From an uncultured bacterium (GTDB lineage Bacteria > Fidelibacterota > UBA2242 > JAFGTP01): a stretch of 64,000 nucleotides of DNA. Numbering within the stretch: position 1 is the stretch's first letter; the number at the start of each line of letters is the position of its first letter. The DNA is taken from assembly GCA_964472715.1 (NCBI GenBank), contig CAYYMT010000001.1, positions 13,321 through 77,320 of the forward strand. The letters run 5' to 3'. Shown here piece after piece: positions 12,088 through 46,105 of this stretch. Below the pieces are notes generated by a model that made no database searches, was not told the origin of the DNA, and saw nothing but the letters and a program-made list of their open reading frames with translations. The position numbers and the translations under genes are program-made.

Positions 12088-12125
12088 CATTATTAAAATT
12101 CGAATCTATTTCATATTTCACTGTA

Positions 12126-12147
12126 GTGGACAATTCGAATTGTCCAC
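12126..12147. promoter_or_regulatory. Perfect 22-bp palindrome GTGGACAATTCGAATTGTCCAC (candidate operator or RNA hairpin)
   Basis: The sequence and its reverse complement are identical. It sits ~30 nt downstream of the predicted promoter and just upstream of a second TTGACA...TATAAA-like element. Confidence 0.5.
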
Positions 12148-13359: not shown

Positions 13360-13688
13360 TGCATTCCTCCCTATTTTTCATGTCAGATATGTATTTATTA
13401 AATTTTTACTTCTTCTTCCAGTTTATATTAAATTTTTTTGAAAACCACTTCTATTATCTTAAGAATGGAATACAAGACTCATGAAATGGCGTCCATTTCG
13501 CATAAACATCACCCTTTAGTGGCTGTCAGATCGCAAGGGTATACTGTATTATAAATTTCGGAGATCTTCCAAAACTCAGATATTTTTTTGTTGACTGAAA
13601 AATTAAAAACCCAAAAAAGTCCTTTTATTTTTATTTTTCCGGCAATATATTTAGTTGATGTTACCGATAACATTAGAAATAACAAGGG

Positions 13689-20720: not shown

Positions 20721-20755
20721 AAAAGCGGCAATTTCGGTTGTCGCTTTTCTTTATT
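20721..20755 (+). terminator. Rho-independent terminator after agcS
   Basis: Stem aagcggcaa / ttgtcgctt with one G-U pair, followed by ttttctttatt. Confidence 0.5.
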
Positions 20756-20773
20756 AACAACAGGGAGTCGCAA

Positions 20774-28976: not shown

Positions 28977-29023
28977 ACCTCAACCTTAACCTTAACCTCA
29001 ACCTTAACCTCAACCTTAACCTC
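28964..29023. repeat. Hexanucleotide microsatellite (CCTYAA)x10 spanning both convergent stop codons
   Basis: The sequence reads cctcaa cctaaa cctcaa ccttaa ccttaa cctcaa ccttaa cctcaa ccttaa cctcaa. The murI stop TAA (28974-28976) and the minus-strand MORN-gene stop (29022-29024) both lie inside the repeat. Confidence 0.85.
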
Positions 29024-30044: not shown

Positions 30045-30046
30045 TT

Positions 30047-31423: not shown

Positions 31424-34400
31424 TCATGTCCTTTGTTTTGATGGTTTTCCAGCTGACTTTTCAATTGCAATGCCAGCTCATTTTGCGGGTCACCTTCCAA
31501 TATGCGGGAAATGTACTTTCCGGCCTCATCAACCCGGCCGGTTTCCAGGCTGAATTGGGCCATTCGCGATAATGCTGTTATATCGGCGGGATGCCGCTTA
31601 ATCACCTCGATAAATTCTTTGATTCCCTCCTCATATTGTTCAGTGAGGATATAGACCTCAGCCAGGTTGCGGCGCGGGTCAAGGGAATCTTCATTGTATG
31701 CCAGTGATTTTTTCAGATTATCGATGGCTTTGTCAGGTTCTCCCAATTCAAAATAAATTATCCCGATTAAATTCAGTACGAAGGAATTGTCACCATAAAT
31801 TTTTTCTAAATGCGGTAAATATTTCCGTAATGTTTTCTCATCCTGCATATTTTTAGCACACAAAACCCATCCTAATAAGCGGTTGCTCAGAGAACTTTTC
31901 TCATATTCCCATTGGTATTGTCTGGCCAGATCTGCCAGGTTATTTTGCCCGGCTGCCTCATTCACCTCATTGATAATCTTGAATATATCCTTTTGAAAAC
32001 GGATGATCGGTTTGGAGGCCAGTTTCTGAATTCGGTTTTGAGTTAGAAAAGTAACCACATTCCAATCCCAGTTCTTTTTCACGTAATCAGCAGCATATCG
32101 TCCCATTTTGGTCATAATATCCGGATTACGCCAGGCAAATTGCATTTTTTGCGCAAGATCGATTTTATCGGCTTCCCAAAACCAGGCTTTTTCCACTAGT
32201 TTCTCATTAGAAACTTTATCAAAATTTTGCACTCTCTTTTCCGCTTTGACCAAAAGTGATGTCCGCTTATTGCAAAAATCCAGGGCGGCACCGCCATTGG
32301 TAATAATTGTGGGAATGCCACAGGCCATGGCTTCCAGGATCGGCAACCCAAACCCTTCACCACGGTACGGATGAACCAGAACGTCACAGGCGGTGTAAAG
32401 CCCGACCAGTTCTTCATCACTTAGTGTGTCGTCAATATACTCAATTTCAGGATTATTTTTCCCATGAATCATGGTAGCGATTTTTTCCTTAAAATTTTGA
32501 TTTTTATAAAAAGACTCCCCGCCGAAATCCTTGATAACCAGACAAACTTCATCAGTTCGGGAAAAAGTATTAATATAAGATTCCAGCAAAATATCAATGC
32601 CCTTGCGGTAAATTGTGCCGCCAATAAACAGGAATTTGAATTTTTTACTGGTCTGGAGTTTATATGGCATTGCCTCAGGATTAAACCTCTCAGTATCCAC
32701 CCCATTGGGAACAACGAAAACTCTTTCTCTGTCGATCCCACTGTCCAGATAGACCTGTTTGACGTAGGTGGATGGTACCCACATTTCATCAACCTGATCG
32801 TTGAATGCATTTACCCATTTCTCCGGTAAAAAGCCAAATTCCCAGGGCTGAATAACCACCCAGTGTCCGGTTTTAGGCGGTTTCAGCTTGGGCGGCCACT
32901 GGTGGCGGACATGTATATCAGCGACACCAATCTGTTTATTTTCCAGTTTTTTAAGTTGCTTCCATTTACCTTCCGGCTGAAATTGATCTTTTTTATAGGG
33001 AAATAGTGACAGATTATAACCCGTTTGTGCCAGACGCAATGATTGTTCACGGTTTACCAAAGCCAGGGAATGATAGGCGAATTGATCTCCCTCCCAGACA
33101 ACTTTAATTTCTCCGGCCGGTTGATCATAAGGATTAATGGGTATATTTTTTATGGAATTGATTTTGCCTGCCAGTTCCTGATTGACCGAAGGTTTTTTTA
33201 AAATATGAGTTCCAAGGTACAGGGCTTCACCCTTCCGGTTGGTGAACCAGTAAATTTCCATCAATTTTTCCAATGCTTCCAAATCTTCAGGATGATGCAA
33301 TAAATAGATTTCCAATAAGTTTCCGGACTCTTCAAACTCTTGTTGATAGAAGAGAGAAATTCCCAATATTTTATTTAATTGATAGTCAAAGGGATCCAGT
33401 AAAAGCGCCTGGCGAAATAATTTTTCACTTTGGTCATAAATTTTATTATAGAGGCATATCTCTCCCAGTTTTTTGGCCACAAAATAATTATTGGATTTAT
33501 CCATCCGGAGATAGTGCAATGACCGCATAATGCCATTAACATCACCTTTTTCATGATAGATATTGGCCAGTTCTTTATTGGCAACAGGATGAAAAGGATT
33601 AATTTCTAATATTTTCTGAAAATGTACAGGTTTACGGGTGGCTTGCCCTTTTTTGAGCAAGGATTTTATTTCTGTTATATTTTCAGCCATATTTTTCAGG
33701 TAATTTGAATAGTTTTGCAAATCCTTTTTTCTGCGCCGCGCTTCCTCATCATCATTACTCAGTATATCGGCATAAATCCAGCGAAAAATTTGAATTTCCT
33801 CATCTTTGCCCTGTACACGGTAGTAATTTTCATTTAAAAATGTCTGAAAACGAACAAACCCCCTGGTTTCAGCAATAACGACAATATATTTCGGCGGCCG
33901 GCTTTCCAGACTTTGCATAATATTTTCTTCTTCCCTGAAGGGAGCCGGTACATATCCGGTAACACTTGGATGGGGACAAAACAGAGTGTTTGTCGGAGAG
34001 GGCCGTTCCGCCCAGAGAAAAATTTCATATTGCGCGCCCCAGACATAAATCTCATCTTCCCTTGTTGTTACTTCCTGTAAGGATTTGCCAATTTTTTCGC
34101 CCAGTGTGAAAAAGAGCCATTCATTGGGATGATTGATGTACATTAATCCGCGCTGAACCTTTTCCCGTTTAAAAATCCCCCTGATTTCCTTGCTGGTCAG
34201 CAACAGGCTCAAAATAACAATTACCAACACAATTGGAATTGATAAGATAAAAAACTTATTCCAGACAGCATAAATCCCCAGCGCCGATAAAATAGCCATA
34301 GGGGCCGCCACAGGCAGCAAATGATATGGCATGATGTGCTTGTTCAGGTAAACGGCTATTAATGCAAAAATCAGCCAACTACCAATTATAATTACAAAGG

Positions 34401-35319
34401 TATATGCAGAAAAATTTCCAAGAAATATCAGCGGAATGAATATTGTAAAAACCAGTGTCTGGCGAAAAAATTTACCATATATATCACGGGCAAATTGTTT
34501 TTGTTGTGACTGAAACCCCTGATTTTCCTTATCAATATAAACACGACGTTCCTTATCAACCTTTATTTCCCGATCTTTTCTGCCTGCGAAATTTTTCCGC
34601 CCATAAAAAATATTGTCTAAATGCATTAAAAAGGCTTTCGGTGTGAGGGAAAATATATCGAGAAAATGAGGGAACATTCTTTTTTTGTAAAAATAGAATC
34701 CCGTTAAAAACAACCCCGGTATAGCCCCCGCAAAAAACAGCAAATAATTATTCCAGGTAAACTCAATCAGAGCAATCGCGATAAGTACCGGCGGAAAGGT
34801 GTTAATATATGCCGATTGTTTGAAAAATAACGCCATAAAACTCATCAGACCGGCCAGAACGAAAACCCAGTTGCCATTCACAGGGCTGATACAAACCAGG
34901 GCAATGGCTAAAGCAGTGAAAGCGCTTTGTTCAATTTCATCACTGGATTGCACCCACACAAAGGTGGGCAGGGAAACCAGAATACCATAGAGCAAGGTCG
35001 CCACAAAGGCAAAATTAACCGGTAAAAACGCAGATGAAATAATAAAAACGGCAATTTGTGTTATCAACATGAAAAAAATTGCGCTATAGCGAAACAGAGA
35101 CCTTGAAACAGCAAAAAAATTTAATAAAAAGGCATACAGCAGCCAGCGCCCTGGCGGATGATTTTCCTGTGTATCTCTCACCGGCATTCTTTGTTTACGT
35201 AGCCAAAAAAGTCCGTGGTATCCATAAATACCAAAATCAGCATCCAGGGGCACTTGCAGATAAGGTATCTTTATCAAAATTGTAAAAATACATATCAGTG
35301 ATAAATATAAAATAACCAT
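31420..35319 (-). CDS. Giant multi-domain glycosylation protein: polytopic GT-C-like membrane region (PMT/ArnT-like), TPR block, GT4 glycosyltransferase domain, and C-terminal TPR block
   Basis: 1299 aa. At least 10 TM helices at the N-terminus, with a first-loop LDADFGIYGYHG acidic motif. TPR repeats around aa 560-700. GT4 motifs KFKFLFIGGTIYRKGID and HPYRGEGFGLPILEAMACGIPTI (EX7E). TPR repeats again at aa ~1130-1290. Confidence 0.7.
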   Translation of the reverse strand: MVILYLSLICIFTILIKIPYLQVPLDADFGIYGYHGLFWLRKQRMPVRDTQENHPPGRWLLYAFLLNFFAVSRSLFRYSAIFFMLITQIAVFIISSAFLPVNFAFVATLLYGILVSLPTFVWVQSSDEIEQSAFTALAIALVCISPVNGNWVFVLAGLMSFMALFFKQSAYINTFPPVLIAIALIEFTWNNYLLFFAGAIPGLFLTGFYFYKKRMFPHFLDIFSLTPKAFLMHLDNIFYGRKNFAGRKDREIKVDKERRVYIDKENQGFQSQQKQFARDIYGKFFRQTLVFTIFIPLIFLGNFSAYTFVIIIGSWLIFALIAVYLNKHIMPYHLLPVAAPMAILSALGIYAVWNKFFILSIPIVLVIVILSLLLTSKEIRGIFKREKVQRGLMYINHPNEWLFFTLGEKIGKSLQEVTTREDEIYVWGAQYEIFLWAERPSPTNTLFCPHPSVTGYVPAPFREEENIMQSLESRPPKYIVVIAETRGFVRFQTFLNENYYRVQGKDEEIQIFRWIYADILSNDDEEARRRKKDLQNYSNYLKNMAENITEIKSLLKKGQATRKPVHFQKILEINPFHPVANKELANIYHEKGDVNGIMRSLHYLRMDKSNNYFVAKKLGEICLYNKIYDQSEKLFRQALLLDPFDYQLNKILGISLFYQQEFEESGNLLEIYLLHHPEDLEALEKLMEIYWFTNRKGEALYLGTHILKKPSVNQELAGKINSIKNIPINPYDQPAGEIKVVWEGDQFAYHSLALVNREQSLRLAQTGYNLSLFPYKKDQFQPEGKWKQLKKLENKQIGVADIHVRHQWPPKLKPPKTGHWVVIQPWEFGFLPEKWVNAFNDQVDEMWVPSTYVKQVYLDSGIDRERVFVVPNGVDTERFNPEAMPYKLQTSKKFKFLFIGGTIYRKGIDILLESYINTFSRTDEVCLVIKDFGGESFYKNQNFKEKIATMIHGKNNPEIEYIDDTLSDEELVGLYTACDVLVHPYRGEGFGLPILEAMACGIPTIITNGGAALDFCNKRTSLLVKAEKRVQNFDKVSNEKLVEKAWFWEADKIDLAQKMQFAWRNPDIMTKMGRYAADYVKKNWDWNVVTFLTQNRIQKLASKPIIRFQKDIFKIINEVNEAAGQNNLADLARQYQWEYEKSSLSNRLLGWVLCAKNMQDEKTLRKYLPHLEKIYGDNSFVLNLIGIIYFELGEPDKAIDNLKKSLAYNEDSLDPRRNLAEVYILTEQYEEGIKEFIEVIKRHPADITALSRMAQFSLETGRVDEAGKYISRILEGDPQNELALQLKSQLENHQNKGHE

Positions 35320-35579
35320 AACTTGCTCCCTTGAATTCTGTTTTTTATTGTTTTATCCATAATCAGCCAATATTCCAGTTACAGATTCAGCCTTCTTGCT
35401 GAAAACTTACTTTTTTAAACCCTTAGTTCGAACCATATTGGGACCGGTTTCCGGATAAAACGGAACTGCAAAAATCAATATTTTCTTTCGTTTTGTTTTC
35501 ATATCAGATTTCACTGCTGTAACAACACATACTAATTAGTGTGTACTCTAAACATAAATTATACATTATAAAGCATGTA

Positions 35580-35831
35580 TTAAGCCGACTTGTAAGTATC
35601 ATAAATTCCTTTCCAGCCGGCGGGTGTCAAAAATTTGAAATGGTAATCATCGTCTGAACAATTGGCTTTAATCGTTATTGAACCGGGGCTGTTTTGGGTT
35701 AACGGATATGTTTCAATTTCCGGAATCAATCCTGAATTATTAAATTCTGAATAGAATTCAGGGGGATGAAAAGGATCATCAGGATATTGACATTGTGGCA
35801 ACTTTGCTATAAATACATCAGGTTTTGTCAT
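35580..35831 (-). CDS. Hypothetical small protein (83 aa), probably translationally coupled to the upstream adenylating enzyme
   Basis: The ORF overlaps the preceding gene's stop by 14 nt. No recognisable motif. Pro, Asp and aromatic-rich. Confidence 0.3.
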   Translation of the reverse strand: MTKPDVFIAKLPQCQYPDDPFHPPEFYSEFNNSGLIPEIETYPLTQNSPGSITIKANCSDDDYHFKFLTPAGWKGIYDTYKSA

Positions 35832-37158
35832 TTTTCACCTTTGAAAATACAAATTGGTATTTCCCCGATTTAAGTTTGGGTAGGGACTCGATAATGTTGA
35901 ATTTTATTTCACATGGCTCTCCCATAATATAATTAATTTTATTTTTTACTTTATCTAAATTATTATCACTTACTTCACTTTTTTGGGCTTCCAGATTAAT
36001 GGTGAATTTTTGATAATCCTCCTGAATCAGTTGAAATTTTTTCACAGACCTCATGAAATAGAACAAATGGGTAAACAGTTCACCATGAATAATATTGCCG
36101 TCCTTGCGAATAATGTGGGCGTTTTCACGGCCGTTTAATCCGGATAAGGAGCGAACGGCAGTACCGTCTATAGTATGACTTTCGCCAATATCGCCGGTAT
36201 CGAATTTTATCAGCGGCATGGCATAATTATTCAGCTGCGTTATAATGACATTGCCAACGCCCGCGTTCCTGATATATTGCCGGGAATTTTTGTTAAATAA
36301 CTCCAGATAAACGGAATGGCTGAATATATCGATATCCTCAGTTCCGATTCCAATAATACCAACTTCCTTTGAACCATATTGGTTAGCAATAATGGATTCC
36401 GGAAAAGCCGCCTTGATTTCCTCTTTTAACTCCGAATACATGGTTCCGGCGGTACAAACAATAACGTGGGGCTGAAAAACCTTCAGATTGGGATTACGAT
36501 TTTTATATTTGGCGATTTCAAAGATCGAATCCACATAAGTCCAGATCATTTTGGGGCGCACCGCATTGATTACCTCAATATAGTTTTCAATCAGGCGATG
36601 ATTGAGTTTGAAACTATTAAGCAAAATCCGGTTAAAGAAGTAATTTTTTAATTTACCGGAAAAGGATTTCTTTTCGTTGAAAATATCCTTTTCCGACCCC
36701 CATAGTTTGATCTCCTGCTCGCCGGGATGTTTATCATATAATTCGCCAAAATACAAGGTGTCCGCTACCATGCGGTTATAATAGTCGCTATCTTGTATAA
36801 AAACCACCGGCTCACCCGTTGATCCGCAGGAATTATTTTTGTAAATTTTTCGGCGGTGATTGTCTTTTGAGCATATTTGCTCATAGTTTTCCCGAATAAT
36901 TTTCTTAGTCAGAAGGGGAATTTGATTAAATTTCTCCCAATTGATTTTATCGTCTTTAATCAGGCCGATTTCATTAAAAAGTCTGTGATAATAAGTAGTA
37001 TTATGATAAGCATGAAATATTAATTTTCGCAACCGGAATAATTGATAATTATAAACATTTTCCCTATTTACATAGAGTTTTCTGGTCTGACGTAAATATT
37101 TAAGCACATCGGGTTTATATAATCTCAGTAAAATTGGCGCTATTTTGGTCTTAATCAT
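35818..37158 (-). CDS. CapK / phenylacetate-CoA ligase (PaaK)-like adenylate-forming enzyme
   Basis: NSCGSTGEPVVFIQD resembles the PaaK/F390-synthetase P-loop (SSGTTGKP). The size and the C-terminal lysine region fit. The start is taken at MIKTK (37158) to avoid overlapping the asnB-like gene; the ORF track extends to 37227. Confidence 0.6.
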   Translation of the reverse strand: MIKTKIAPILLRLYKPDVLKYLRQTRKLYVNRENVYNYQLFRLRKLIFHAYHNTTYYHRLFNEIGLIKDDKINWEKFNQIPLLTKKIIRENYEQICSKDNHRRKIYKNNSCGSTGEPVVFIQDSDYYNRMVADTLYFGELYDKHPGEQEIKLWGSEKDIFNEKKSFSGKLKNYFFNRILLNSFKLNHRLIENYIEVINAVRPKMIWTYVDSIFEIAKYKNRNPNLKVFQPHVIVCTAGTMYSELKEEIKAAFPESIIANQYGSKEVGIIGIGTEDIDIFSHSVYLELFNKNSRQYIRNAGVGNVIITQLNNYAMPLIKFDTGDIGESHTIDGTAVRSLSGLNGRENAHIIRKDGNIIHGELFTHLFYFMRSVKKFQLIQEDYQKFTINLEAQKSEVSDNNLDKVKNKINYIMGEPCEIKFNIIESLPKLKSGKYQFVFSKVKNDKT

Positions 37159-39031
37159 AATATACATCCAGCCATTTTTGAAAGACATAAAGCGTCCACA
37201 ATAATTTCCGGTTATCCTTTTTTTCATTTAGATGATCCTGCATGAGACTGTCGATATAATCGTAATTAAAAATATTATAATGCTGAATATTTTGCCTGGA
37301 CAGCGTTTGCAGAAATTCTGATTTCAAATCTGATTTTATCCACTTGGTAACGGGAATGCCAAATCCTTTTTTGGGACGATTGATAATTTTTTCCGGAAGA
37401 TATTTTTTGGCCAGGCGTTTCAGTAAATATTTTGACGTCAGGCCGCGATATTTTAGCCGGGCCGGCACTTTCGCCATGAACTCCACCACTTCCTTGTCCA
37501 AAAACGGAACCCTAACCTCCAGGGAATTCATCATACTGGCGCGGTCAACCTTGACCAGCATATTATCCTGCAGATAAAAGCGCATGTCCAGCCACAAAGA
37601 CCGCTCCCAGTTATTTTCTGTCTGGCACCGTTTCATATGCTGCCTGATGATTTCTAATTTTTGAACCTTCTTACCCAGCACATTCAATAATTCAGGTGAT
37701 AGCAGATGTTTTTTTTGGTTAGTATCAAAGGAGCCGAGCCATATCTGATGGCGAATATCAGGATCATACTTCAGGCCTGCAACAAATTTCTTGGCTTTAA
37801 AATCAAAACTTATATTCTCGTCTGATGTTGGTAACAAATTCACCACCGGATTAAGCAGATAATGTGAAAATCGCGGCATAAAACCACCGATTTTCCGGGC
37901 TAAATAAGTTGGATATCCGGCAAATATTTCGTCACCCCCATCACCGCTCAGAGCAACAGTGACATTTTCCCTGGTGAGTTGCGACAGCAGATAAGTGGGC
38001 AAAATGGAATCGTCAGCAAAGGGTTCGTCCATATTGCGGACAATTTCCGGCAGGATGTCCATCATTTCACCAGGTGTAAAAATTTTTTCAAAGTGTTCCG
38101 TATCCAGATAGCCCGACATAAACCGGGCGTAACTGGTTTCATCAAAAGAATCTTCGGCAAATCCAATACTGAAGGTTTTCAGGTTATTTTTCATGCTTCT
38201 TGATAAGTAGGCCGCAATCAGGCTGGAATCAAGGCCACCGCTGAGGAAAGACCCCAACGGCACATCACTGACTTTGCGGCGCTCCACGGCCTTCCTGATC
38301 AGCCAATCCAGTTCCTGAACATAAAAATCAACATCACGGGAGCTATACTTTGGCTGAAATTCTAAAAAATAATATTGATGCCTGGTTAATTTATTCCTTG
38401 ATAATTCCAGATAATGGCCCTGTTCAAGCTTATGAATATTATTAAAGATCGATAAGGGAGCCGGTACCGATTCGAATGTCAGGTAATAATTCAGCGCTTC
38501 ATAGTTGAGTTCTTTTTTGAAAGCAGGAAAAGTGAGAATGGATTTTAGTTCCGAAGCAAAAATGAAATCGCCATCTTTATGGTAATAATATAACGGCTTG
38601 ATGCCAAAGCGGTCCCGGGCCAGGAAAAGTGAGTCCCGGTTGAGATCAAGAATAGCAAAAGCAAACATGCCGTTCAGTTTATCCAGGCAGTTCACCCCTT
38701 CTTCTTCATAAAGATGCAAAATGACTTCTGTATCGGATTGGGTTTTAAATTGATGACCCGCCGCCTGTAACCTTTTTCTCAGTTCCCGGAAATTATAGAT
38801 TTCGCCGTTAAAAACAATCGCCAGTGATCTGTCCTCATTAAAAATCGGCTGGTCTCCGGTGTTGATATCAATCACCCGCAACCTGCGCATGCCAATGGCA
38901 AAATCATCGATCACAAAATATCCGCTGTCATCCGGGCCGCGATAAGCGATTTTATCGCACATTTTTTCCAGTATATTGGATTTTTCCTGCTGTGAAAATT
39001 TTTTTGATATGAATCCGGCTATCCCACACAT
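37151..39031 (-). CDS. asnB: Asparagine synthetase (glutamine-hydrolysing) family amidotransferase (AsnB/PseA-like)
   Basis: N-terminal MCGIAG Ntn-Cys. PP-loop SGGLDSS in the synthetase domain. 626 aa. Confidence 0.85.
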   Translation of the reverse strand: MCGIAGFISKKFSQQEKSNILEKMCDKIAYRGPDDSGYFVIDDFAIGMRRLRVIDINTGDQPIFNEDRSLAIVFNGEIYNFRELRKRLQAAGHQFKTQSDTEVILHLYEEEGVNCLDKLNGMFAFAILDLNRDSLFLARDRFGIKPLYYYHKDGDFIFASELKSILTFPAFKKELNYEALNYYLTFESVPAPLSIFNNIHKLEQGHYLELSRNKLTRHQYYFLEFQPKYSSRDVDFYVQELDWLIRKAVERRKVSDVPLGSFLSGGLDSSLIAAYLSRSMKNNLKTFSIGFAEDSFDETSYARFMSGYLDTEHFEKIFTPGEMMDILPEIVRNMDEPFADDSILPTYLLSQLTRENVTVALSGDGGDEIFAGYPTYLARKIGGFMPRFSHYLLNPVVNLLPTSDENISFDFKAKKFVAGLKYDPDIRHQIWLGSFDTNQKKHLLSPELLNVLGKKVQKLEIIRQHMKRCQTENNWERSLWLDMRFYLQDNMLVKVDRASMMNSLEVRVPFLDKEVVEFMAKVPARLKYRGLTSKYLLKRLAKKYLPEKIINRPKKGFGIPVTKWIKSDLKSEFLQTLSRQNIQHYNIFNYDYIDSLMQDHLNEKKDNRKLLWTLYVFQKWLDVYYD

Positions 39032-40137
39032 TGTTTCAGCATCTCCTCATATTTTGGATATAAATTGTCCCAGTTATTGTTCCGGACAATAAATTTTCTC
39101 ATTTGTTGACCCGACTGATTGATTAGAGCGGGATTCTCAAGCAGGTATTGCAATTTTTCTTTCCATGCCATAGGATTTTGATAATCACTGACCACCCAAT
39201 TACTTATGATCGTCTCATCCTCCCACTGAAGATGAGCATTGGCAGAGCTTAAAAGCGCGCATTGATTAGCCACGGCTTCCAGAGCGGAATTTGACATCCC
39301 TTCATCCAGCGAGGGTAAGACAAAAATGTGAGCGTCCCGGTATTGTCGCACCAATGCTTCCCGGTTTTTCCAGGTATCAAATATCACTTTTTCCCCAAGA
39401 CCTTTTTCCCTGACCAGGGATTGTAAGTTCGTTTTGCAAGGCCCGTCGCCAATTAGTTTAAATTGGAAATCCTTTTGCAATAATGCCAATGCTTTTATGA
39501 AAACCCCGAGATTTTTTTGTTCCGATAAGCGGCCGGTGTAAAGGAATTTAATTTTACACTGCTGCAAATTGTCACGCGCCGGCATCTCCCGAATCGTAAT
39601 TCCGTTGGGTAATATTTTGATTTTTCCGGAATTAATACCGGTTTGCCCGGCTAAATATGCCAGCCGCCGGGAATTGACATGCACAACAGCGGCATGATTA
39701 CAGACCATCTTAATAAAAGGCCGGGCGAAAAACTGTAACCGATTATACCGGGCGCCTAATTGAAAACCGGGCACATCACCACCGCGGAGGGAGACAATAT
39801 AAGGAACTTTAAATAAAAATTTATACCACATGGCAAGAAAGCCGCCGGGAATAGTGAAAAAGGCCAGGATAATATCCGGCGAAAAAGACCGGTTGACAGG
39901 TCTTAATTTCAAAAATCCCTTAACAATAAATAACAAAAATTCATTGACAGAGCCTTTTGAGGCCGCTTTTCGTCCTGATTGAACAGTCGTCATTTCTTCA
40001 TTTTTCTGATCAACAGGCCCGGTCAGTAAATGAACCTTGTGGTTATGTTGTTTTAATCGCTTGTATAATTCCTTTGTAATAGTTGCAGCGCCGCCGCCAT
40101 TGGGTGGAAACTCGTGATTGATCAATAATATTTTCAT
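39019..40137 (-). CDS. Family-1 (GT4) glycosyltransferase
   Basis: MKILLINHEFPPNGGGAATITKELYKRL is the GT4 N-domain. LPSLDEGMSNSALEAVA is an EX7E-type motif. Confidence 0.75.
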   Translation of the reverse strand: MKILLINHEFPPNGGGAATITKELYKRLKQHNHKVHLLTGPVDQKNEEMTTVQSGRKAASKGSVNEFLLFIVKGFLKLRPVNRSFSPDIILAFFTIPGGFLAMWYKFLFKVPYIVSLRGGDVPGFQLGARYNRLQFFARPFIKMVCNHAAVVHVNSRRLAYLAGQTGINSGKIKILPNGITIREMPARDNLQQCKIKFLYTGRLSEQKNLGVFIKALALLQKDFQFKLIGDGPCKTNLQSLVREKGLGEKVIFDTWKNREALVRQYRDAHIFVLPSLDEGMSNSALEAVANQCALLSSANAHLQWEDETIISNWVVSDYQNPMAWKEKLQYLLENPALINQSGQQMRKFIVRNNNWDNLYPKYEEMLKQCVG

Positions 40138-40167: not shown

Positions 40168-41241
40168 TCAATAATAAATGGTATTATTGTTCATTAAAAA
40201 ATTATAAGCCTCAGAAACGTCATTGTTTTCCGGAAGACTTTTCTGAAAAATGCCATAGACCTTTGCAGCCTGTGTCTTCATATCCAGTCTAAACAAAGTA
40301 TTTATAAACAATCTGACAATTTCAGGGTTCAATGGATTTTTTTCATACAGCGGCTTTAGCTTGTTCATTACTTGCATTAGGTTGTTATTTTGCAAATCAT
40401 GAATTACCAGTTCATATTCATCAGTGGAAGAACTTCTGTTTCCAGGAGAAACAATGGGGTTATGGAATAAATATTCCCAACCATTTAGTTCGAGAAACAA
40501 TTTAGACTCAGAATAATTATTAAGTAAATCCTGAAGATTATCTGGATTTGTCTTAATCAGGTCCGTTTTCAGATTAAAATTATAATCAATTGCAAAAAAA
40601 TCATAAATTCGTTTCAAAACGCCACTGTTTATTTTACCGCTATCCAGAGAGTTAGGATCGAAGAAATCCTCATAATAAATTTCCAGATAATTATCTTTAA
40701 ATAAATTTTTAAATCTGTTTCTATTTTCTGTAATACTCCTTTTAATAATAGCAAGATCATTAAGTAAACGTTGGTCAATTGGGAGGGTTATTTTATGAGG
40801 TGCATATTTTTCCGTGCTGTGGGATTTCCGGCCTAATTGTTCTTTCCTGATATTTAAAATAGTTGAAATCAACGTTTTGAGACTATTTTTTCTGATCAGG
40901 TGAATTACTTTATTAAATTTACGATTCAGAATGTGCATTTGATCAGGAATGATCGCCAACTGGTCATATTTGATATTCATACCAACAATTTTACAGTTCT
41001 TTTTCTTTTTAAATGTTGTATCAAAAAATTCACTTAACACCTGTTTCTGGCCGGGCGGCGTAATGTTGACGGCTGATTTCTTGACTTTTTTTCTCCAGAA
41101 ATGGAAATAATTATCTTTTTCCATAAAATCCTGCCACAGAAGTAATTCCGGATAAACATGAATTTCAGGATGGCTGGTAAGCAGTGAGGAAAGAAATCCT
41201 GTACCGGATCGCTGAGTGGCAAGTAATATAAATTTTTCCAT
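40168..41241 (-). CDS. Sulfotransferase (Stf0-like PAPS-dependent sulfotransferase domain) with a C-terminal helical extension
   Basis: MEKFILLATQRSGTGFLSSLL resembles the 5'-phosphosulfate-binding loop of Stf0-type sulfotransferases (ATQRSGS). 357 aa. Confidence 0.6.
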   Translation of the reverse strand: MEKFILLATQRSGTGFLSSLLTSHPEIHVYPELLLWQDFMEKDNYFHFWRKKVKKSAVNITPPGQKQVLSEFFDTTFKKKKNCKIVGMNIKYDQLAIIPDQMHILNRKFNKVIHLIRKNSLKTLISTILNIRKEQLGRKSHSTEKYAPHKITLPIDQRLLNDLAIIKRSITENRNRFKNLFKDNYLEIYYEDFFDPNSLDSGKINSGVLKRIYDFFAIDYNFNLKTDLIKTNPDNLQDLLNNYSESKLFLELNGWEYLFHNPIVSPGNRSSSTDEYELVIHDLQNNNLMQVMNKLKPLYEKNPLNPEIVRLFINTLFRLDMKTQAAKVYGIFQKSLPENNDVSEAYNFLMNNNTIYY

Positions 41242-41256
41242 ATTTATTTATTTTTT

Positions 41257-43143
41257 TTATTTTATTATTTGTTCAACCAAATATTCATCACTTTTTTTCG
41301 CCTCAAAAAATCCGCGGGTAATGATTTCACTCAGCAGGCCGACGATAATAAATTGTAATCCCCCGAGCATTGTAAAGATCAGAAATATTAAAAAGGTCTG
41401 TCCGGTTATGCCAATCCCCAACAGCCGGTGTGAGAAAAAAAGGAGCAGGGACAATGTAAACCCGCTGAAGATCGTCATCAGGGCAAATTTTCCAAAAAAC
41501 AACAGCGGATGGGTACGAAAACCGGTATAAAAGCGTAAAGTGATCAGGTCGAGAATCACTCGCCAGACCCGCTCCAGTCCGTATTTTGCTTCCCCGAATT
41601 TCCGGCTGTGATGGGTGACCGGAATTTCCGCTACTTTGATGCCCAGCCAGGCGGCATAGGCGGGAATGAAACGATGCATTTCACCGTAGAGTTTAATGCG
41701 CTTGACAATCGCTTTTTTATAAGCTTTCAGGGAGCAGCCAAAATCATGAATTCGAATGCCTGTGCCTTCAATCAGTTTATTAATGATCCTGTTGGCTATT
41801 TTTGAAGGTATTTTTCGTGTCAATTTCTTGTCCTGCCGGTTTTTGCGCCAGCCGCTGACCAGATCATAGCCTTCACTCATTTTAGCCAGCAATTTGGGAA
41901 TATCCACGGGATCATTTTGCAAGTCCGCATCCATAGTGATCACGATATCGCCGGAAGCATACTTAAATCCGGCAGCAAAGGCCGCGGTCTGTCCGTAATT
42001 GCGGCGAAACTTCAGGGTAACCACATTGTCATTCTGCCGGGACAAACTTTCCAGTATTGTCAGGGAATTATCCGTGCTGCCGTCATCAATAAATATAATT
42101 TCATAGTTTTTTCCCAGTTCCTGCAAAACCGATTTGATTTTATCGAACAGGATGATCAGGGATTCCTCTTCATTGTAAACCGGTATAACGATGGATAATT
42201 CAGTGCTCTTTTGCTTTTCCTGACTATCAAAAGTATCAATAATTTTCATAGGCTGAATTTTTCCGATCACTGCCTGCCGGGACTTTGGGCCGGCCTGTTT
42301 GGTTAAAATCGGAAAAAATTCTTTCCACACATCGATCGAATGGGATACTTTCCCTTCTAAAGTGTAGGTTAGGGCCAGGGTCGCGTGGATGTCATCGGCA
42401 TCGGGTTTGAGTTTCAGACAGTTTTGAAAATCTTCCCGGGCTTTTTGCACTTCATTGAGATTCAAATAGCAAAAACCACGGTGATACAGCGCGTCGACTG
42501 CATTGCCGGAAAGATTAAGAATTTGTGTAAAAGTTTGAATGGCTGTTTCATAATCATTGTCTTGTATGTCAATGATTCCTTTTCGAAAGAGCAGATCCCT
42601 GTTTTTGGTATTTTTGTTAAAATACCGGTGTATCAAAGTTTTGGCTTTATCCAGTTCATTGGATTCGGAATAGAATTCCAGCAGATAGACCAGGGATTCA
42701 TTGTTGTAATTTACAATTTCAGCCGCTTGCAGATAGAAGGATTCAGCCTTGGCGCGGTTATTCTGATCACTGTAAATTTCTGCCAGGTCCCGGCAAATAT
42801 CATATTTTCCCGGCGCCAGGCTGTAGGCTTTTTCCATAGCTGTCAGGCCGTCATCAATTTTTCCCCGGAGATAGAGTGTTTTTCCCATTCCGTAAAGGGC
42901 CTGAAAATGGTTGTCGTCTATATTCATAGCATTGTGAAAATATTTTTCCGCTTCCCGCATCTGACCGATAGCCAGATGCATTTCCCCGATCAATAGATTA
43001 ATATGCAGATCAGCACTATTATGAATATAAACAGACTCCAGCAGGTCGAGAGCGGCCACATACTCCCGGTTGCGGATCTTTTCCTCAATTAAATTTAATT
43101 TTGAATTCAGGGAATTCTGGGGTTTCATAAAATCCTCCGGCAT
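41257..43143 (-). CDS. TPR-repeat protein fused to a polyprenyl-phosphate-type GT2 glycosyltransferase (DPM1/ArnC/GtrB-like) with C-terminal TM helices
   Basis: The N-terminal ~300 aa are TPR repeats. Then SIVIPVYNEEESLIILF...IIFIDDGSTDNS...DADLQN follow, which is the GT2 DXD pattern. The C-terminal hydrophobic helices end in GLLSEIITRG. A GGAGG RBS sits 7 nt before the ATG, and the gene starts only 9 nt after csrA. Confidence 0.75.
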   Translation of the reverse strand: MPEDFMKPQNSLNSKLNLIEEKIRNREYVAALDLLESVYIHNSADLHINLLIGEMHLAIGQMREAEKYFHNAMNIDDNHFQALYGMGKTLYLRGKIDDGLTAMEKAYSLAPGKYDICRDLAEIYSDQNNRAKAESFYLQAAEIVNYNNESLVYLLEFYSESNELDKAKTLIHRYFNKNTKNRDLLFRKGIIDIQDNDYETAIQTFTQILNLSGNAVDALYHRGFCYLNLNEVQKAREDFQNCLKLKPDADDIHATLALTYTLEGKVSHSIDVWKEFFPILTKQAGPKSRQAVIGKIQPMKIIDTFDSQEKQKSTELSIVIPVYNEEESLIILFDKIKSVLQELGKNYEIIFIDDGSTDNSLTILESLSRQNDNVVTLKFRRNYGQTAAFAAGFKYASGDIVITMDADLQNDPVDIPKLLAKMSEGYDLVSGWRKNRQDKKLTRKIPSKIANRIINKLIEGTGIRIHDFGCSLKAYKKAIVKRIKLYGEMHRFIPAYAAWLGIKVAEIPVTHHSRKFGEAKYGLERVWRVILDLITLRFYTGFRTHPLLFFGKFALMTIFSGFTLSLLLFFSHRLLGIGITGQTFLIFLIFTMLGGLQFIIVGLLSEIITRGFFEAKKSDEYLVEQIIK

Positions 43144-43152
43144 TAGCCAGGG

Positions 43153-43383
43153 CTATTTTTTTTTGCTGAAGGATTTTAGTATATCAGCATTCAAGGTGCT
43201 GTTAAAAACGGAAGCGCGATTTTTTGCCTTGATTCGTTCGTATACCTCTTCACGATGCACCGGAACCTCGCGGGGCGCGTTAATTCCGATTTTGGTGTGG
43301 CCGTTACTGCATTCCAAAACTCTGATGACGATGTTGCTTCCAATTCTGATACTCTCTTCGGTTTTTCTGGTTAAAACAAGCAT
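43153..43383 (-). CDS. csrA: Carbon storage regulator CsrA
   Basis: MLVLTRKTEESIRIGSNIVIRVLECSNGHTKIGINAPREVPVHREEVYERIK matches CsrA almost along its full length, including the GxxG RNA-binding region. Confidence 0.9.
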   Translation of the reverse strand: MLVLTRKTEESIRIGSNIVIRVLECSNGHTKIGINAPREVPVHREEVYERIKAKNRASVFNSTLNADILKSFSKKK

Positions 43384-43413: not shown

Positions 43414-43848
43414 TTAAAATTTGTCTAATTTGTGTTCCTCGGACAATTTCGGATCATCCAATATGATCTGTTTGCCATTGCCTGTAAAGGTATTCAATAT
43501 CAATGGCGCTTTGGTATTGGCCACAAAATGTTTTGTTTCTTCGTCAATCCGCAGGATTACAAAAAGGCGTAAATACTTTTGATCCTCAATTTCAAGATTA
43601 CGCATTTCATTTTTTGGAAATGAAATATCGTCAAAAATATTCAGAAGGCTTCCATCCAGAACGATCATGGATATATCCGGCAATTCTGTGGATTGAAACA
43701 ATTTGAAGGGTGGAAAGTCTTCCAGGTTTTTGAATTCAAATTCTGACAAATGTTCAAATCCCGGCAAGCCATATTCAAAATTGAATATTGTCGCACTTCC
43801 GGTTTTTGCTTCTTTAGTCATTACATTGCTCATCTTCATATCTTTCAT
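43414..43848 (-). CDS. fliW: Flagellar assembly factor FliW
   Basis: IFNFEYGLPGFEHLSEFEF...FKLFQSTE...MIVLD follows the FliW pattern. It sits immediately upstream of csrA in the conserved fliW-csrA pair. The true start may be an internal Met near 43821. Confidence 0.75.
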   Translation of the reverse strand: MKDMKMSNVMTKEAKTGSATIFNFEYGLPGFEHLSEFEFKNLEDFPPFKLFQSTELPDISMIVLDGSLLNIFDDISFPKNEMRNLEIEDQKYLRLFVILRIDEETKHFVANTKAPLILNTFTGNGKQIILDDPKLSEEHKLDKF

Positions 43849-43852
43849 TTAG

Positions 43853-44734
43853 TTATCGGAGAAAATTCAATATATTGAGATTGATCGCATTTGAGGTGGA
43901 ATGCAAAGCAGCCTGATAAGCGGTTTCTTCATTCTTGTAATTGGTAATCGCTTCAGCCATATCCGCATCCTCCAGGTTGGATAAATAGGACTTCAGATTC
44001 ACATTGGCGGTGTTCAGACGGTTTTCCGTATTGATGATCTGAATTTTTGACGAACCAATAGCTGAACTGCGTTTGCCGATTTCCGCCGATGAATCATCGA
44101 GCAGGTCAATGGCTTTGGTAATCGCGTCAGTATCACCATTATCCAGAGCATTCTTAAAATTGATCAAATTTTCAAAAGCCTCTGTTTCAATTAATTCCTG
44201 ACCGGTGGTATTAATATCCACATAATAATTATCAGCTATTTTACGGTTCACTTTTTTATCATTACCCGTGTAAGTGATTGAATTGCCATTGTATATAAAA
44301 GCTTTGTCTGTTTTGGATTTTGTGCCGGCAAAGACAGCTTTACCCATGAATGTTGAGTTTGACAAGGAAACAGTATCCTCAATAATATCATTGACCTGAT
44401 CCCGGAAAGTTTCCCAATTGTCGCCATTATTGGATATATCAGCCGCGCGAATGGCGATTTCCTTGGCTGTTACCAGTCCTTCATTGATCTGGTCCAAAGC
44501 AGACAGGGATACATCGATCCAGCCTTTTGCCAGACTAATGCCCTCCAGGTATTGGCTGTTGTTGGAAATAGCATTCCGGAAAGATTCCACTTTCGTGTAA
44601 TCCACAGGATCATCGGAAACTTTTTCCAGTTTTTTCCCGGTGGCAGTCTGATTTTGGTATACCGCCATTTTTTCACGGCTTGAATTAATGTTGGTTAATA
44701 AATTTCTTGATATCATACCTTCTGTTATTCGCAT
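43853..44734 (-). CDS. flgL: Flagellar hook-associated protein 3 (FlgL)
   Basis: MRITEGMISRNLLTNINSSREKM...ATGKKLEKVSDDPV matches the flagellin-N/FlgL N-terminus. The C-terminal ...AINLNILNFLR fits as well. 293 aa. Confidence 0.8.
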   Translation of the reverse strand: MRITEGMISRNLLTNINSSREKMAVYQNQTATGKKLEKVSDDPVDYTKVESFRNAISNNSQYLEGISLAKGWIDVSLSALDQINEGLVTAKEIAIRAADISNNGDNWETFRDQVNDIIEDTVSLSNSTFMGKAVFAGTKSKTDKAFIYNGNSITYTGNDKKVNRKIADNYYVDINTTGQELIETEAFENLINFKNALDNGDTDAITKAIDLLDDSSAEIGKRSSAIGSSKIQIINTENRLNTANVNLKSYLSNLEDADMAEAITNYKNEETAYQAALHSTSNAINLNILNFLR

Positions 44735-44746
44735 AATTACCTCTGA

Positions 44747-46105
44747 TTAGATCAAAGTTAATATTGTATCTACCAGCGTTTGCACCGTACCGATAACTTT
44801 GGCTGAGGCCTGGTAGGCTTGCTGATATTTTGATAAATTGACAAGTTCTTCATCGAGACTGACCCCGGATTCGGAATCCTGCTGGTTCTTGATAGTCATC
44901 ACTATTTTTTCCTGGCTGGACATCAGATCTTCGGATTTTTTTACCTTAGCGCCTACATCCGTCGCAATTCCACTATAATAATTATTTAAAGAAACGCCAT
45001 TCAGGGTGTTCCGGTTTTGGATTTCATTGATCTGCCGGGCAATATTGGAGTTGGCGCTCTCCCCTATTTGATCGGAAGTGGCGACTAAGTAGGGATTTGT
45101 GGCAATCAGATTATTCACGGCAAAATTACCGGCGCTATTAATGTTTTCCTTAAAAAATGGAATTCCGGTGTGGTCTTCCAGGTCATAGCCCTTTTGATGA
45201 ATTTTATTGACTTCATTGGCTAAATTGGTAGCCACCCGGTCCAGCCGGGAACGATAATCCGGAAGATGCTGATTGGATATGGCAAGTAAACTTCCTAATT
45301 CACCGGATTTGAGGTTAATATTCTTATCATTTTTTTTCAATCGGATGTGATAATTACTGGAATTGCCGATATTCTCGGAAACCACTTCCAATTCATTAAC
45401 CTGGTCACCGGATACTAAAATCTGTCCCGCTGCGGCGACAGTGACATCACCGAATTTTCCCGCTGATGTTTGAATCTCAAAATATTCAGACAGGTTACTG
45501 ACCAAGCGGTCCCGTTCATCCATAATAGCATCGGAATTATTAGCTGTGATTTCCTTGTTGATTTCCGCCAGAGCGTGGAGTTTGTTATTTATGTCTTCCA
45601 CATTACCGTTCATATTCGTGGCAATATTTTTTTTCAGGTTGATCAGATCATTGTTGACACGATTAAAGGCTTTTTCCAAGGCAACGGCTTTGTCTACTAC
45701 CACCATTCGGGCCGGTTCACTTTCCGGATCAGAAGCCAAATCTCCCCAGGCGCCCCAAAATTCATTGAGATGCTGCGAAATCCCGCTTGCGCCGGGTTCA
45801 CCAAAAATATCCTCAATCTGGGTAAACATCTGGGAATCCATGGAATATTTTGCCAGATTCGGATTCTGTGTCAAAAATTGTTCATCAATAAAATCATTGC
45901 GCTTTCGTGCCAGTTCTTTACTGATCTGACTGTTGGTAATTGTGCCAAATTTAGCCGTTTGAGAATTCATGTCGGAAAAAGTTGCCAGCCGCCGGGAATA
46001 TCCCGGTGTATTGATATTGGCAATATTTTCAGAGGTGAGTTCCAGCGCGGATTTATTCGACTGAACGCCTCGTTTTGAATGATCTAATATTCCTGAGATT
46101 GACAT
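44747..46105 (-). CDS. flgK: Flagellar hook-associated protein 1 (FlgK)
   Basis: GVQSNKSALELTSENIANINTPGYSRR is the rod/hook N-terminal motif. 452 aa. The C-terminal YQQAYQASAKVIGTVQTLVDTIL is the conserved FlgK C-terminus. Confidence 0.85.
   Translation of the reverse strand: MSISGILDHSKRGVQSNKSALELTSENIANINTPGYSRRLATFSDMNSQTAKFGTITNSQISKELARKRNDFIDEQFLTQNPNLAKYSMDSQMFTQIEDIFGEPGASGISQHLNEFWGAWGDLASDPESEPARMVVVDKAVALEKAFNRVNNDLINLKKNIATNMNGNVEDINNKLHALAEINKEITANNSDAIMDERDRLVSNLSEYFEIQTSAGKFGDVTVAAAGQILVSGDQVNELEVVSENIGNSSNYHIRLKKNDKNINLKSGELGSLLAISNQHLPDYRSRLDRVATNLANEVNKIHQKGYDLEDHTGIPFFKENINSAGNFAVNNLIATNPYLVATSDQIGESANSNIARQINEIQNRNTLNGVSLNNYYSGIATDVGAKVKKSEDLMSSQEKIVMTIKNQQDSESGVSLDEELVNLSKYQQAYQASAKVIGTVQTLVDTILTLI

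Follow-up and report, generated by a model that had tools for sequence, protein, structure and literature searches.

In bacteria, glycans bearing sulfate are rare and little explored. Sulfotransferases are defined by a strand-loop-helix 5'-phosphosulfate-binding (PSB) element with a catalytic Lys or Arg, and the Arg type of this element, with the sequence R-x-G, is known from NodH and Stf0 (PMC11625862). Two further hallmarks are a strand-turn-helix for the 3'-phosphate, in which a Ser (and Arg) is conserved, and a His or Glu near the PSB element as the catalytic base. NodH, the Nod-factor GlcNAc 6-O-sulfotransferase of Sinorhizobium meliloti (PDB 9vki), works in the cytoplasm and sulfates a carbohydrate. 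It has been assigned to PF13469 (PMC11625862). Stf0 is the mycobacterial trehalose 2-sulfotransferase (PDB 1TEX; PF09037). Anionic sulfur groups also occur on filament glycans, namely, on the N-glycan of the Halobacterium archaellin and on the type B flagellin of C. difficile (PMC11980604, PMC5207245). In the Caulobacter FlmG-type systems, TPR domains are fused to modifying enzymes, and the one in FlmG binds flagellins (PMC7591256). The ArnC/GtrB class of glycosyltransferases (GTs), in turn, feeds extracytoplasmic glycosylation (PMC11127046, PMC7389260).

The gene described here lies on the minus strand at positions 40168 to 41241 of the window, by which we mean the whole 64-kb stretch of DNA that was analysed. 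In all likelihood, its product does transfer sulfate to sugars. The host belongs to the Fidelibacterota (Marinimicrobia/SAR406), a little-studied bacterial phylum.

Family, fold, and conserved residues of the sulfotransferase

The open reading frame (ORF) fills positions 40168 to 41241 exactly, beginning with ATG and encoding 357 amino acids, and the plus-strand frame at the same place is interrupted by many stops. It is not a chance ORF, as it has homologs and a confident fold. The structure model (pLDDT 87.7, pTM 0.84) predicts a sulfotransferase alpha/beta fold. Model secondary structure and the family profile delimit a catalytic alpha/beta domain of aa 1 to 262 (40456 to 41241, minus strand), which is followed by a C-terminal TPR tail of five model helices at aa ∼275 to 351 (40189 to 40419, minus strand). 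The profile matches consensus TPR proteins with an E value of 2e-11, three homologs (P0005, P0006, and L011) match PF14559, and 38 of 154 close family representatives are extended by 60 aa or more at the C terminus. Neither this tail nor the resemblance of the upstream glycosyltransferase to ArnC had been noticed in the initial annotation. No transmembrane (TM) segments were found in the sulfotransferase, which is predicted to be soluble and cytoplasmic.

The only Pfam match of the 357-aa protein is to PF13469 (Sulfotransfer_3). It covers just 39 residues (aa 6 to 44) and, at 30.3 bits against a gathering threshold of 27, is marginal. An NCBIfam scan gave no match. Standard annotation misses this family: the Pfam threshold is passed by 3 bits, and PGAP labels an 88% relative "hypothetical protein." In a sample of 98 relatives, PF13469 was matched by 95 (best E value, 4e-20), PF00685 by 53, and PF09037 by 29, the last of these weakly (best E value, 1.9e-9). 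The 357-aa protein itself had no match to PF09037 at E≤0.01.

A word-indexed search with the single protein as the query returned 8 matches, a profile search of the same database added little, and a scan of metagenome contigs found nothing. A reading of the protein as a rare orphan, based on those 8 homologs, was dropped when an exhaustive search with the catalytic-domain profile recovered 6,914 relatives at E≤1e-3. The analysis defines a large, mostly unannotated clade of NodH/Stf0-like sulfotransferases, which at E≤1e-10 has about 2,700 cluster representatives.

Compared with PDB, the catalytic-domain profile gave 47 matches, 46 of which are sulfotransferases. NodH was the best match and spanned the whole catalytic domain (E value, 1.3e-13; positions 3 to 222 of 247), followed by TPST1 (1.5e-9), OLS-ST (2e-8), and Stf0 (2.5e-8; positions 3 to 230). 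A profile built from the eight close homologs alone reached NodH only at an E value of 0.23, so the relationship with NodH is remote. By structure, Stf0 ranked below OLS-ST, the TPSTs, and 3RNL. The protein had been described as Stf0-type, and this is loosely right: it appears to be a PAPS-dependent sulfotransferase with an Arg-x-Gly PSB loop, but PF09037 is unmatched and Stf0 is not the nearest neighbor.

TPST1/2 rank high in both the structural and the profile comparisons, which, together with a TPR tail that suggests a protein partner, raises the possibility of a protein (tyrosine) sulfotransferase whose substrate is recruited via the tail. We consider this very improbable. The best full-domain profile match is a carbohydrate sulfotransferase, NodH, whereas the sequence match to TPST lies mostly in aa 5 to 80, the PAPS-binding N terminus, with a short second stretch. 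Moreover, the gene lies in glycan gene clusters and always has a GT4 gene as its partner.

The motif ATQRSGTGF, from which the family had first been proposed, is present at aa 8 to 16 (41194 to 41220, minus strand) and is the predicted PSB loop, of the Arg-x-Gly type. Within QRSGT (aa 10 to 14), R11 and G13 are invariant in the 98 relatives, and the loop aligns with ARSGSS of NodH and PRSGTT of TPST. A predicted 3'-phosphate-binding strand-turn-helix, HLIRKNSLKTLIS, occupies aa 114 to 126 (40864 to 40902, minus strand). There, R117 is invariant, at least 90% of the relatives retain H114, N119, L121, and S126, and the Arg and Ser align with those of the NodH element ERENKLASYSS. E32, retained at the same level (at least 90%), corresponds in the alignments to the Glu in NodH "hDEiF" and in TPST "CGEE"; E32 and H114 are the candidate catalytic bases near the PSB loop. 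Judging from conservation and alignment, R11, S12, G13, and T14 would hold the 5'-phosphosulfate, R117 and S126 would hold the 3'-phosphate, and E32 would act as the general base.

These residues also bear on whether the protein could be a P-loop-fold nucleotide or sugar kinase or an inactive relic, which we regard as barely credible. The loop reads QRSGT and has no GxxxxGK[ST] Walker A sequence, the sulfotransferase-specific Arg/Ser 3'-phosphate-binding element is conserved, and kinases rank below sulfotransferases in every search, the PDB comparison above included. A P-loop kinase was rejected on the motifs and the search ranking, and conservation of the catalytic residues across 98 relatives argues against a decayed relic. 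The sulfotransferase identity is well supported, and from its sequence we would group the protein, within the Sulfotransfer_3 family, with the NodH/Stf0-like enzymes that have an Arg-x-Gly PSB loop; a short TPR tail is added to it.

Gene neighborhood and conserved module

The neighboring genes named in this and the next paragraph are, like the sulfotransferase gene, on the minus strand. Farthest upstream are the late flagellar genes flgK, flgL, and fliW (43414 to 46105), identified by Pfam, NCBIfam, and synteny; FlgL matches TIGR02550 with 187.7 bits (cut-off, 127), and FliW matches PF02623. Directly downstream is csrA (43153 to 43383), recognized as a 76-aa ORF from its sequence and from PF02599 on its orthologs. 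A gap of 9 nt separates it from the first module gene (41257 to 43143), whose product was assigned from Pfam, NCBIfam, and the PDB matches given below: a TPR region (aa ∼10 to 300) is joined to a polyprenyl-phosphate GT2 of the ArnC/GtrB type that ends in a TM hairpin (TM segments at aa 550 to 609). In PDB, the catalytic half of this protein matches ArnC over its full length (2.4e-66), GtrB (5e-41), and DPMS (6.5e-22). Downstream of the sulfotransferase gene are a Pfam-assigned GT4 glycosyltransferase (39019 to 40137), which also matches the PEP-CTERM stp2 model of NCBIfam, and an AsnB-like glutamine-dependent amidotransferase (37151 to 39031; PF00733, 1e-99). The best NCBIfam match of the latter is TIGR03108, the XrtA/PEP-CTERM exopolysaccharide (EPS) amidotransferase, at 586 bits and under the cut-off of 817. 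The sulfotransferase gene is indeed flanked by glycosyltransferase genes on both sides, as had been noted, with the TPR-GT2 upstream and the GT4 downstream.

The tail of the island (29022 to 37227) is lineage specific and was not found in more distant loci. It encodes a CapK/PaaK-like adenylating enzyme (its L001 ortholog carries a CapK_C annotation), an 83-aa ORF, a 1,299-aa protein with multiple TM segments, TPR, GT4, and a second TPR region, a soluble SunS-like GT2+TPR protein (30047 to 31423), and a MORN protein. The N-terminal ∼10-TM domain of the 1,299-aa protein has no Pfam match, one homolog, and a model pLDDT of 41. It is the sole candidate for a GT-C partner of the ArnC-like enzyme.

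The order flgK-flgL-fliW-csrA, TPR-GT2, (AsnB-like), sulfotransferase, GT4 was found at seven loci, across which FlgK identity drops from 96% to 38% and FlgI identity from 98% to 62%. In four of the seven, the gap between csrA and the next gene is 6 to 24 nt. The physical linkage of the module to flagellar genes is thereby conserved across deep divergence, in agreement with the operon downstream of csrA that the initial annotation had described. Its further claim of translational coupling did not hold for the window: the sulfotransferase gene starts 15 nt past the upstream stop, and 30 nt lie between its end and the GT4 start. In the relatives L002 and L017, the sulfotransferase and GT4 genes do overlap, by 4 nt. 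The sole overlapping pair among the module junctions in the window is GT4/AsnB-like (13 nt). A scan for promoters and terminators gave counts equal to those in shuffled sequences and nothing usable, with no convincing terminator inside the operon; no Rfam or tRNA match was found in the window.

The sulfotransferase and GT4 genes are adjacent in all 12 loci examined, and the AsnB-like gene is part of the module in 8. All four genes occur together in L002, L006, L007, L011, L014, and L017, as well as, in a different order, in the window and L001; in L008 and on the P0004 contig, the TPR-GT2, sulfotransferase, and GT4 genes are visible before the contigs end. The L017 organism has a GC content of 73%, which indicates that the module crosses phyla. 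Homologous modules or pairs lie in generic glycan clusters in L007, L016, L017, and L018, the distant copies of the module are in clusters without flagellar genes, and one sulfotransferase-GT4 pair adjoins a Wzm/Wzt-like ABC exporter. Related islands also carry genes for methyltransferases, DegT, WbqC, and a second sulfotransferase, like variable surface-glycan islands. No flippase or recognizable GT-C is conserved in the module.

The GC content of the sulfotransferase gene is 0.323, versus 0.40 to 0.43 in its neighbors. Recent horizontal transfer was considered and rejected, since an equal dip was present in 6 of 6 compared loci, including one of 73% GC; a gene-specific composition is the likelier cause.

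With regard to PAPS supply, no cysC, cysN, cysD, or sat gene was found among the scanned ORFs of the 64-kb window. An IMPase-family ORF at 20738 to 21544 was tried as CysQ, the PAP phosphatase. It scores better as a SuhB-type inositol monophosphatase, both scores being below the cut-offs.

Possible acceptors of the sulfate group

Our best explanation, to which we give about an even chance, is that the gene encodes a cytoplasmic PAPS-dependent sugar O-sulfotransferase within a conserved four-enzyme module at the tail of a late flagellar operon, the acceptor being either part of the flagellum or a glycoconjugate of the envelope in general. The TPR-fused ArnC/GtrB-type GT, the AsnB-like amidotransferase, the sulfotransferase, and the GT4 always beside it would assemble on the inner membrane face, docked perhaps through the TPR segments that the GT2 and the sulfotransferase carry. 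Together they would build a sugar or short glycan, sulfated and probably amidated, either on a lipid carrier or on an acceptor close by. Sulfation itself would be cytoplasmic, as PAPS is, and the product would then be displayed outside the cytoplasm. It would be unusual for a GT4 to act on a polyprenyl-monophosphate sugar, and for this reason the four enzymes may work on more than one intermediate. In the Fidelibacterota, the module would be transcribed as the tail of the late operon flgK-flgL-fliW-csrA, and from that position the sulfated glycan would be made at flagellum completion. Coexpression of the glycan with the flagellum is plausible.

The initial annotation predicted a sulfated flagellar glycan if the island modifies flagellin. 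In such a classical flagellin glycosylation island, TPR-GTs would O-glycosylate flagellin in the cytoplasm, the sulfotransferase would sulfate the flagellin glycan before export, and its TPR tail would bind flagellin or a GT. The position right after flgK-flgL-fliW-csrA, kept in seven loci, fits this proposal, and the FliW-CsrA pair controls flagellin synthesis. Also in line with it are the several TPR+GT fusions of the island, including the soluble GT2+TPR resembling SunS-type peptide glycosyltransferases, the flagellin-binding TPR domain of FlmG as a precedent (PMC7591256), the soluble, cytoplasmic nature predicted for the sulfotransferase, and the additional genes of the related islands. 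However, the sole conserved GT adjoining csrA is a full-length ArnC/GtrB-type polyprenyl-phosphate GT, of the class associated with extracytoplasmic glycosylation. Bacterial flagellin bypasses the periplasm, and we know of no flagellin glycosylation that uses polyprenyl-phosphate GT chemistry. Furthermore, no flagellin gene (fliC) was found among the scanned ORFs of the 64-kb window, where FlgL is the sole Flagellin_N/C protein, nor was a Maf-type transferase, and the distant copies of the module sit in polysaccharide clusters without flagellar genes, with one pair beside the exporter. These observations weaken the proposal as a whole, which we regard as possible but rather unlikely, and flagellin as the acceptor is similarly doubtful.

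The same ArnC-like GT2 would suit a sulfated envelope polysaccharide, lipopolysaccharide, or EPS unrelated to the flagellum, for which the site after csrA would be a lineage-specific insertion site. The PEP-CTERM matches of the AsnB-like and GT4 proteins and the homologous modules and pairs in generic glycan clusters point in this direction, and the substrates of known bacterial relatives, NodH among them, are glycolipids or polysaccharides (PMC11625862). However, the tight csrA junction is kept down to 38% FlgK identity, which is hard to reconcile with an accidental neighbor, and the window island lacks genes for Wzx/Wzy, Wzm/Wzt, and exosortase. An envelope glycan unrelated to the flagellum is, on balance, improbable. 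If it were the acceptor, only the operon would be unusual, and the enzyme would be an ordinary sulfotransferase of surface polysaccharides.

A bolder and tentative form of the flagellum-linked reading, which we think unlikely, is that the Fidelibacterota late flagellar operon has its own sulfation module and that the flagellum, through a filament protein or another exposed part, bears a PAPS-dependent O-sulfated glycan. In its most radical version, the ArnC-like enzyme may build the glycan on a polyprenyl-phosphate carrier for attachment outside the cytoplasm, a route that, to our knowledge, is so far known for archaella and not for bacterial flagella. A flagellar component as the acceptor would represent a new type of flagellar modification, and a sulfated flagellum would be the first case of a sulfate-ester glycan on a bacterial flagellum. 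The analysis in any case defines a four-gene module (TPR-ArnC-like GT, AsnB-like amidotransferase, sulfotransferase-TPR, and GT4), and its fixed place after fliW-csrA in the Fidelibacterota predicts a strongly anionic sulfated surface glycan made with the flagellum. Such a glycan would bear on filament bundling, recognition by phages and grazers, and particle attachment.

Comparison with known systems

NodH and the window protein have in common the Arg-x-Gly PSB loop, a Glu after helix 1, and an Arg/Ser 3'-phosphate-binding element. They differ in that the window gene has no nod or nodPQ context and NodH has no TPR tail. The TPR tail likewise sets the window protein apart from Stf0, and in place of a sulfolipid (trehalose/SL-1) context it has TPR-GT2, GT4, AsnB-like, and flagellar genes as neighbors. 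The sulfotransferase domains of TPST1/2 and OLS/CurM are only 17 to 19% identical to the window protein and act on peptide or acyl-ACP acceptors in the Golgi or embedded in a polyketide synthase, whereas the window gene lies in a glycan biosynthesis context.

Among filament-modifying systems, the Halobacterium enzymes have an alkaline-phosphatase/sulfatase fold and belong to an archaeal N-glycosylation pathway, and in C. difficile the sulfur is that of a sulfonate (taurine) instead of a sulfate ester, with no sulfotransferase mentioned in that paper. The FlmG-type systems resemble this locus in their linkage to flagellar genes and in the fusion of TPR to modifying enzymes. However, the conserved GT here is of the ArnC/GtrB type and not a soluble protein O-glycosyltransferase, and there is no adjacent flagellin gene; our literature search found no PAPS sulfotransferase linked to TPR-glycosyltransferase systems for flagellin glycosylation. 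Three-component extracytoplasmic glycosylation, which combines an ArnC/GtrB-type GT, a flippase, and a GT-C, shares with this locus a full-length ArnC/GtrB homolog, here the first gene of the module. In contrast to that system, the module has no conserved flippase or recognized GT-C beside its GT, the GT itself carries a ∼300-aa N-terminal TPR region, and the module adds an amidotransferase, a sulfotransferase, and a GT4.

Fold and active site of the sulfotransferase

The gene under study is an ATG-initiated open reading frame of 357 amino acids on the minus strand (41241..40168), at the coordinates given by the initial annotation; the plus-strand reading of 40168-41241 is riddled with stops. 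That annotation had called the product a Stf0-type sulfotransferase from the motif ATQRSGTGF, which occupies residues 8 to 16. The sole Pfam match is to Sulfotransfer_3 (PF13469; 30.3 bits, cut-off 27), covering residues 6 to 44 only, and neither Pfam Stf0 (PF09037) nor any NCBIfam model matched. The NCBI pipeline labels the 88% identical relative, from a Fidelibacterota MAG, a "hypothetical protein"; a 35% relative comes from a "Candidatus Neomarinimicrobiota" MAG. Searched exhaustively by HMM, the catalytic domain yielded 6914 cluster representatives at an E value of ≤1e-3 and 2709 at ≤1e-10. Among 98 sampled relatives, 95 matched Sulfotransfer_3, 53 matched Sulfotransfer_1, and 29 matched Stf0, which bears out the sulfotransferase call.

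The AlphaFold2 model, built with eight homologs, is confident (pLDDT 87.7, pTM 0.84) and shows an alpha/beta domain (residues 1 to 262) followed by five helices (residues 275 to 351); a Foldseek comparison agrees with the sulfotransferase assignment. When a profile of 71 catalytic domains was compared with the PDB, 46 of the 47 matches were sulfotransferases. The best was NodH (9vki; E value, 1.3e-13, whole domain), followed by TPST1/2 (about 1e-9 to 1e-8) and OLS-ST/CurM-ST, and Stf0 also matched over its full length (2.5e-8). The model, family membership, and PDB profile make the assignment solid, and a non-sulfotransferase is hardly credible. We likewise consider it very improbable that the enzyme is a protein sulfotransferase, the TPST matches ranking behind NodH.

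The superfamily is recognized by a 5'-phosphosulfate-binding (PSB) loop containing Lys or Arg, a Ser in the helix of the 3'-phosphate-binding element, and a catalytic base that is either His or Glu (PMC11625862). Judged from the alignments, all of these features appear to be present and conserved. R11 and G13 of the PSB loop are invariant among relatives, as is R117, and S126 and E32 are each kept in at least 90% of them, with E32 lining up with the corresponding Glu in NodH and the TPSTs. The loop is of the Arg-x-Gly type described for NodH and Stf0 (PMC11625862), so "Stf0-type" was a sensible initial guess as far as the branch goes. The protein does not, however, belong to PF09037, and "NodH-like Sulfotransfer_3" describes it better.

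The PAPS-site residues are thus intact in a sulfotransferase fold that also carries a tetratricopeptide repeat (TPR) tail. The final ~85 residues match consensus TPR proteins in profile comparison (E value, 2e-11), several homologs match PF14559, and 38 of the 154 nearest family representatives extend at the C terminus by 60 residues or more. TPRs serve in protein contacts. FlmG of Caulobacter binds flagellins through its TPR domain (PMC7591256). A search for transmembrane segments in the sulfotransferase found none, so sulfation would take place in the cytoplasm.

A conserved module closing the late flagellar operon

The position downstream of csrA and the glycosyltransferase flanks, both proposed initially, hold. 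On the minus strand, flgK (46105-44747), flgL (44734-43853), fliW (43848-43414), and csrA (43383-43153; 76 amino acids) are followed after 9 nt by a TPR-GT2 protein (43143-41257), the sulfotransferase, a GT4 (40137-39019), an AsnB-like amidotransferase (39031-37151), and a CapK/PaaK-like adenylate-forming enzyme (37227-35818). The rest of the flagellar cluster lies upstream (fliF, fliG, fliH, fliI, fliJ, flgF, flgG, flgA, flgH, flgI, flgJ, and flgN). The sulfotransferase gene begins 15 nt past the GT2 stop, and 30 nt separate it from the start of GT4; with such gaps it is tightly packed but, contrary to the initial annotation, not literally translationally coupled. A 4-nt overlap with GT4 does occur in relatives. 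As annotated, the CapK/PaaK-like gene starts 77 nt inside the AsnB-like gene (within 35580-37227), so its true start probably lies further downstream. An 83-residue open reading frame with no family match follows it on the minus strand (within 35580-37227), and then, also on the minus strand, come a 1299-residue TPR/GT4 protein (31420-35319), a GT2+TPR protein (30047-31423), and, last in this order, a MORN protein. Elsewhere in the window, a 1.2-kb AT-rich stretch (11750-12975) between uvrC and a small membrane-protein gene holds palindromes, such as GTGGACAATTCGAATTGTCCAC near 12127; it contains no open reading frame of at least 45 amino acids and no Rfam or tRNA match, and the 12001-14000 bin has a GC content of 0.33.

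The order flgK-flgL-fliW-csrA, then TPR-GT2, (AsnB-like), sulfotransferase, and GT4, recurs in seven independent loci (the window, L001/L009, L008, the P0004 contig, L002, L006, and L011). Across them, FlgK ranges from 96% down to 38% identity with the window copy and FlgI from 98% down to 62%, which indicates that the arrangement is old. The module is thus a conserved four-gene unit, headed by an ArnC-type enzyme and kept at the late flagellar operon end in Fidelibacterota, in which the sulfotransferase is obligatorily paired with GT4. The sulfotransferase diverges faster (88% identity) than the flagellar genes (93 to 98%) or the other module genes (91 to 95%), and its GC content is below that of its neighbors in every locus checked (the window, L001, L002, L006, L008, L011, and L017); it is 0.323 against 0.40 to 0.43 in the window and 0.711 against 0.71 to 0.80 in L017, a locus of 73% GC. 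Related islands have added methyltransferases, DegT, WbqC, and a second sulfotransferase. The last, unrelated looking and a few genes downstream, is seen in L011 (13745-14713; Sulfotransfer_3, 3.5e-28) and L002 (13263-14033; Sulfotransfer_1, 7e-14) and suggests multiply sulfated products.

The heading TPR-GT2 protein fuses a ~300-residue N-terminal TPR region to a full-length ArnC/GtrB-type polyprenyl-phosphate glycosyltransferase in every locus examined, the TPR part being a separate open reading frame in L008. The last 323 residues of the protein align with ArnC from end to end, membrane hairpin included (E value, 2.4e-66), and also match GtrB (5e-41) and dolichol-phosphate mannose synthase (6.5e-22). 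Enzymes of this type charge polyprenyl phosphate with a sugar that is then used extracytoplasmically (PMC11127046, PMC7389260). The 1299-residue protein might be a GT-C-like membrane transferase partner: it has about ten transmembrane segments in residues 1 to 383, with an invariant PLDADFG just past the first, and then TPR, a GT4 domain (residues ~803 to 1032), and further TPR. Its transmembrane domain had no Pfam match, a single homolog among 5.8 billion proteins, and an unusable AlphaFold2 model (pLDDT 41). The soluble GT2+TPR protein finds its best NCBIfam match in the SunS peptide S-glycosyltransferases, at 109 bits and well short of the 350-bit cut-off, and is a lineage-specific candidate protein glycosyltransferase.

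Acceptor and PAPS supply

The initial annotation predicted a sulfated flagellar glycan if the island modifies flagellin. Bacterial flagellin glycosylation, as far as described, takes place in the cytoplasm, and a classical flagellin island, with cytoplasmic sulfation of a flagellin-linked glycan, is a possible but doubtful reading. Against it, the conserved csrA-adjacent gene is of the ArnC/GtrB type, serving extracytoplasmic sugar use, and our literature searches found no paper in which flagellin glycosylation involves such enzymes or a PAPS sulfotransferase. The window also holds no flagellin gene, its Flagellin_N/C protein being FlgL. Furthermore, the module occurs in clusters where no flagellar gene was seen. 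In L017 (5693-11613; JGI 3300032155, a 168-kb contig), the order TPR-GT2, AsnB-like, sulfotransferase, GT4 lies inside a large glycan cluster with DUF268 and other methyltransferases, an epimerase, DegT, a second AsnB-like gene, a radical SAM gene, and a PglD-like gene, and the 9 kb available contain no flagellar gene; this order in a 73% GC organism indicates that the module crosses phyla. L007 likewise has no flagellar gene near the module, and in L018 a more distant sulfotransferase-GT4 pair adjoins a Wzm/Wzt-like ABC exporter. The closest NCBIfam models for the AsnB-like enzyme and GT4, below cut-off, are those of exopolysaccharide (PEP-CTERM) systems. An envelope glycan unrelated to the flagellum would accommodate these loci, but set against the seven flagellar ones we judge it unlikely.

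In the reading we prefer, PAPS would donate sulfate to a hydroxyl group on a sugar that the module makes or extends, on the cytoplasmic side, in a membrane-associated complex held by the TPR segments, and the sulfated, probably amidated product would be shown at the cell or flagellar surface upon late flagellar gene expression. Whatever the acceptor, we judge this picture as a whole about as likely as not to be right. No cysC, cysDN, or sat was found among the window reading frames scanned. An inositol-monophosphatase-family gene (20738-21544, plus strand) was considered as CysQ and set aside as it looks like SuhB (207 bits against SuhB-type IMPase, 95 against CysQ, both below cut-offs), and so gives no evidence for PAP recycling.

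Relation to known sulfur-bearing glycans

The enzyme is a poorly annotated addition to the bacterial glycan sulfotransferases of surface-glycan gene clusters, and what is new is its setting, with a conserved module joined to the fliW-csrA operon. A bacterial flagellar glycan bearing sulfate would be noteworthy if real, but on present evidence this is a minority reading. Among the nearest documented cases, the filament glycans of Halobacterium, with sulfatase-fold enzymes (PMC11980604), and of C. difficile, with a taurine sulfonate (PMC5207245), both involve unrelated chemistry.
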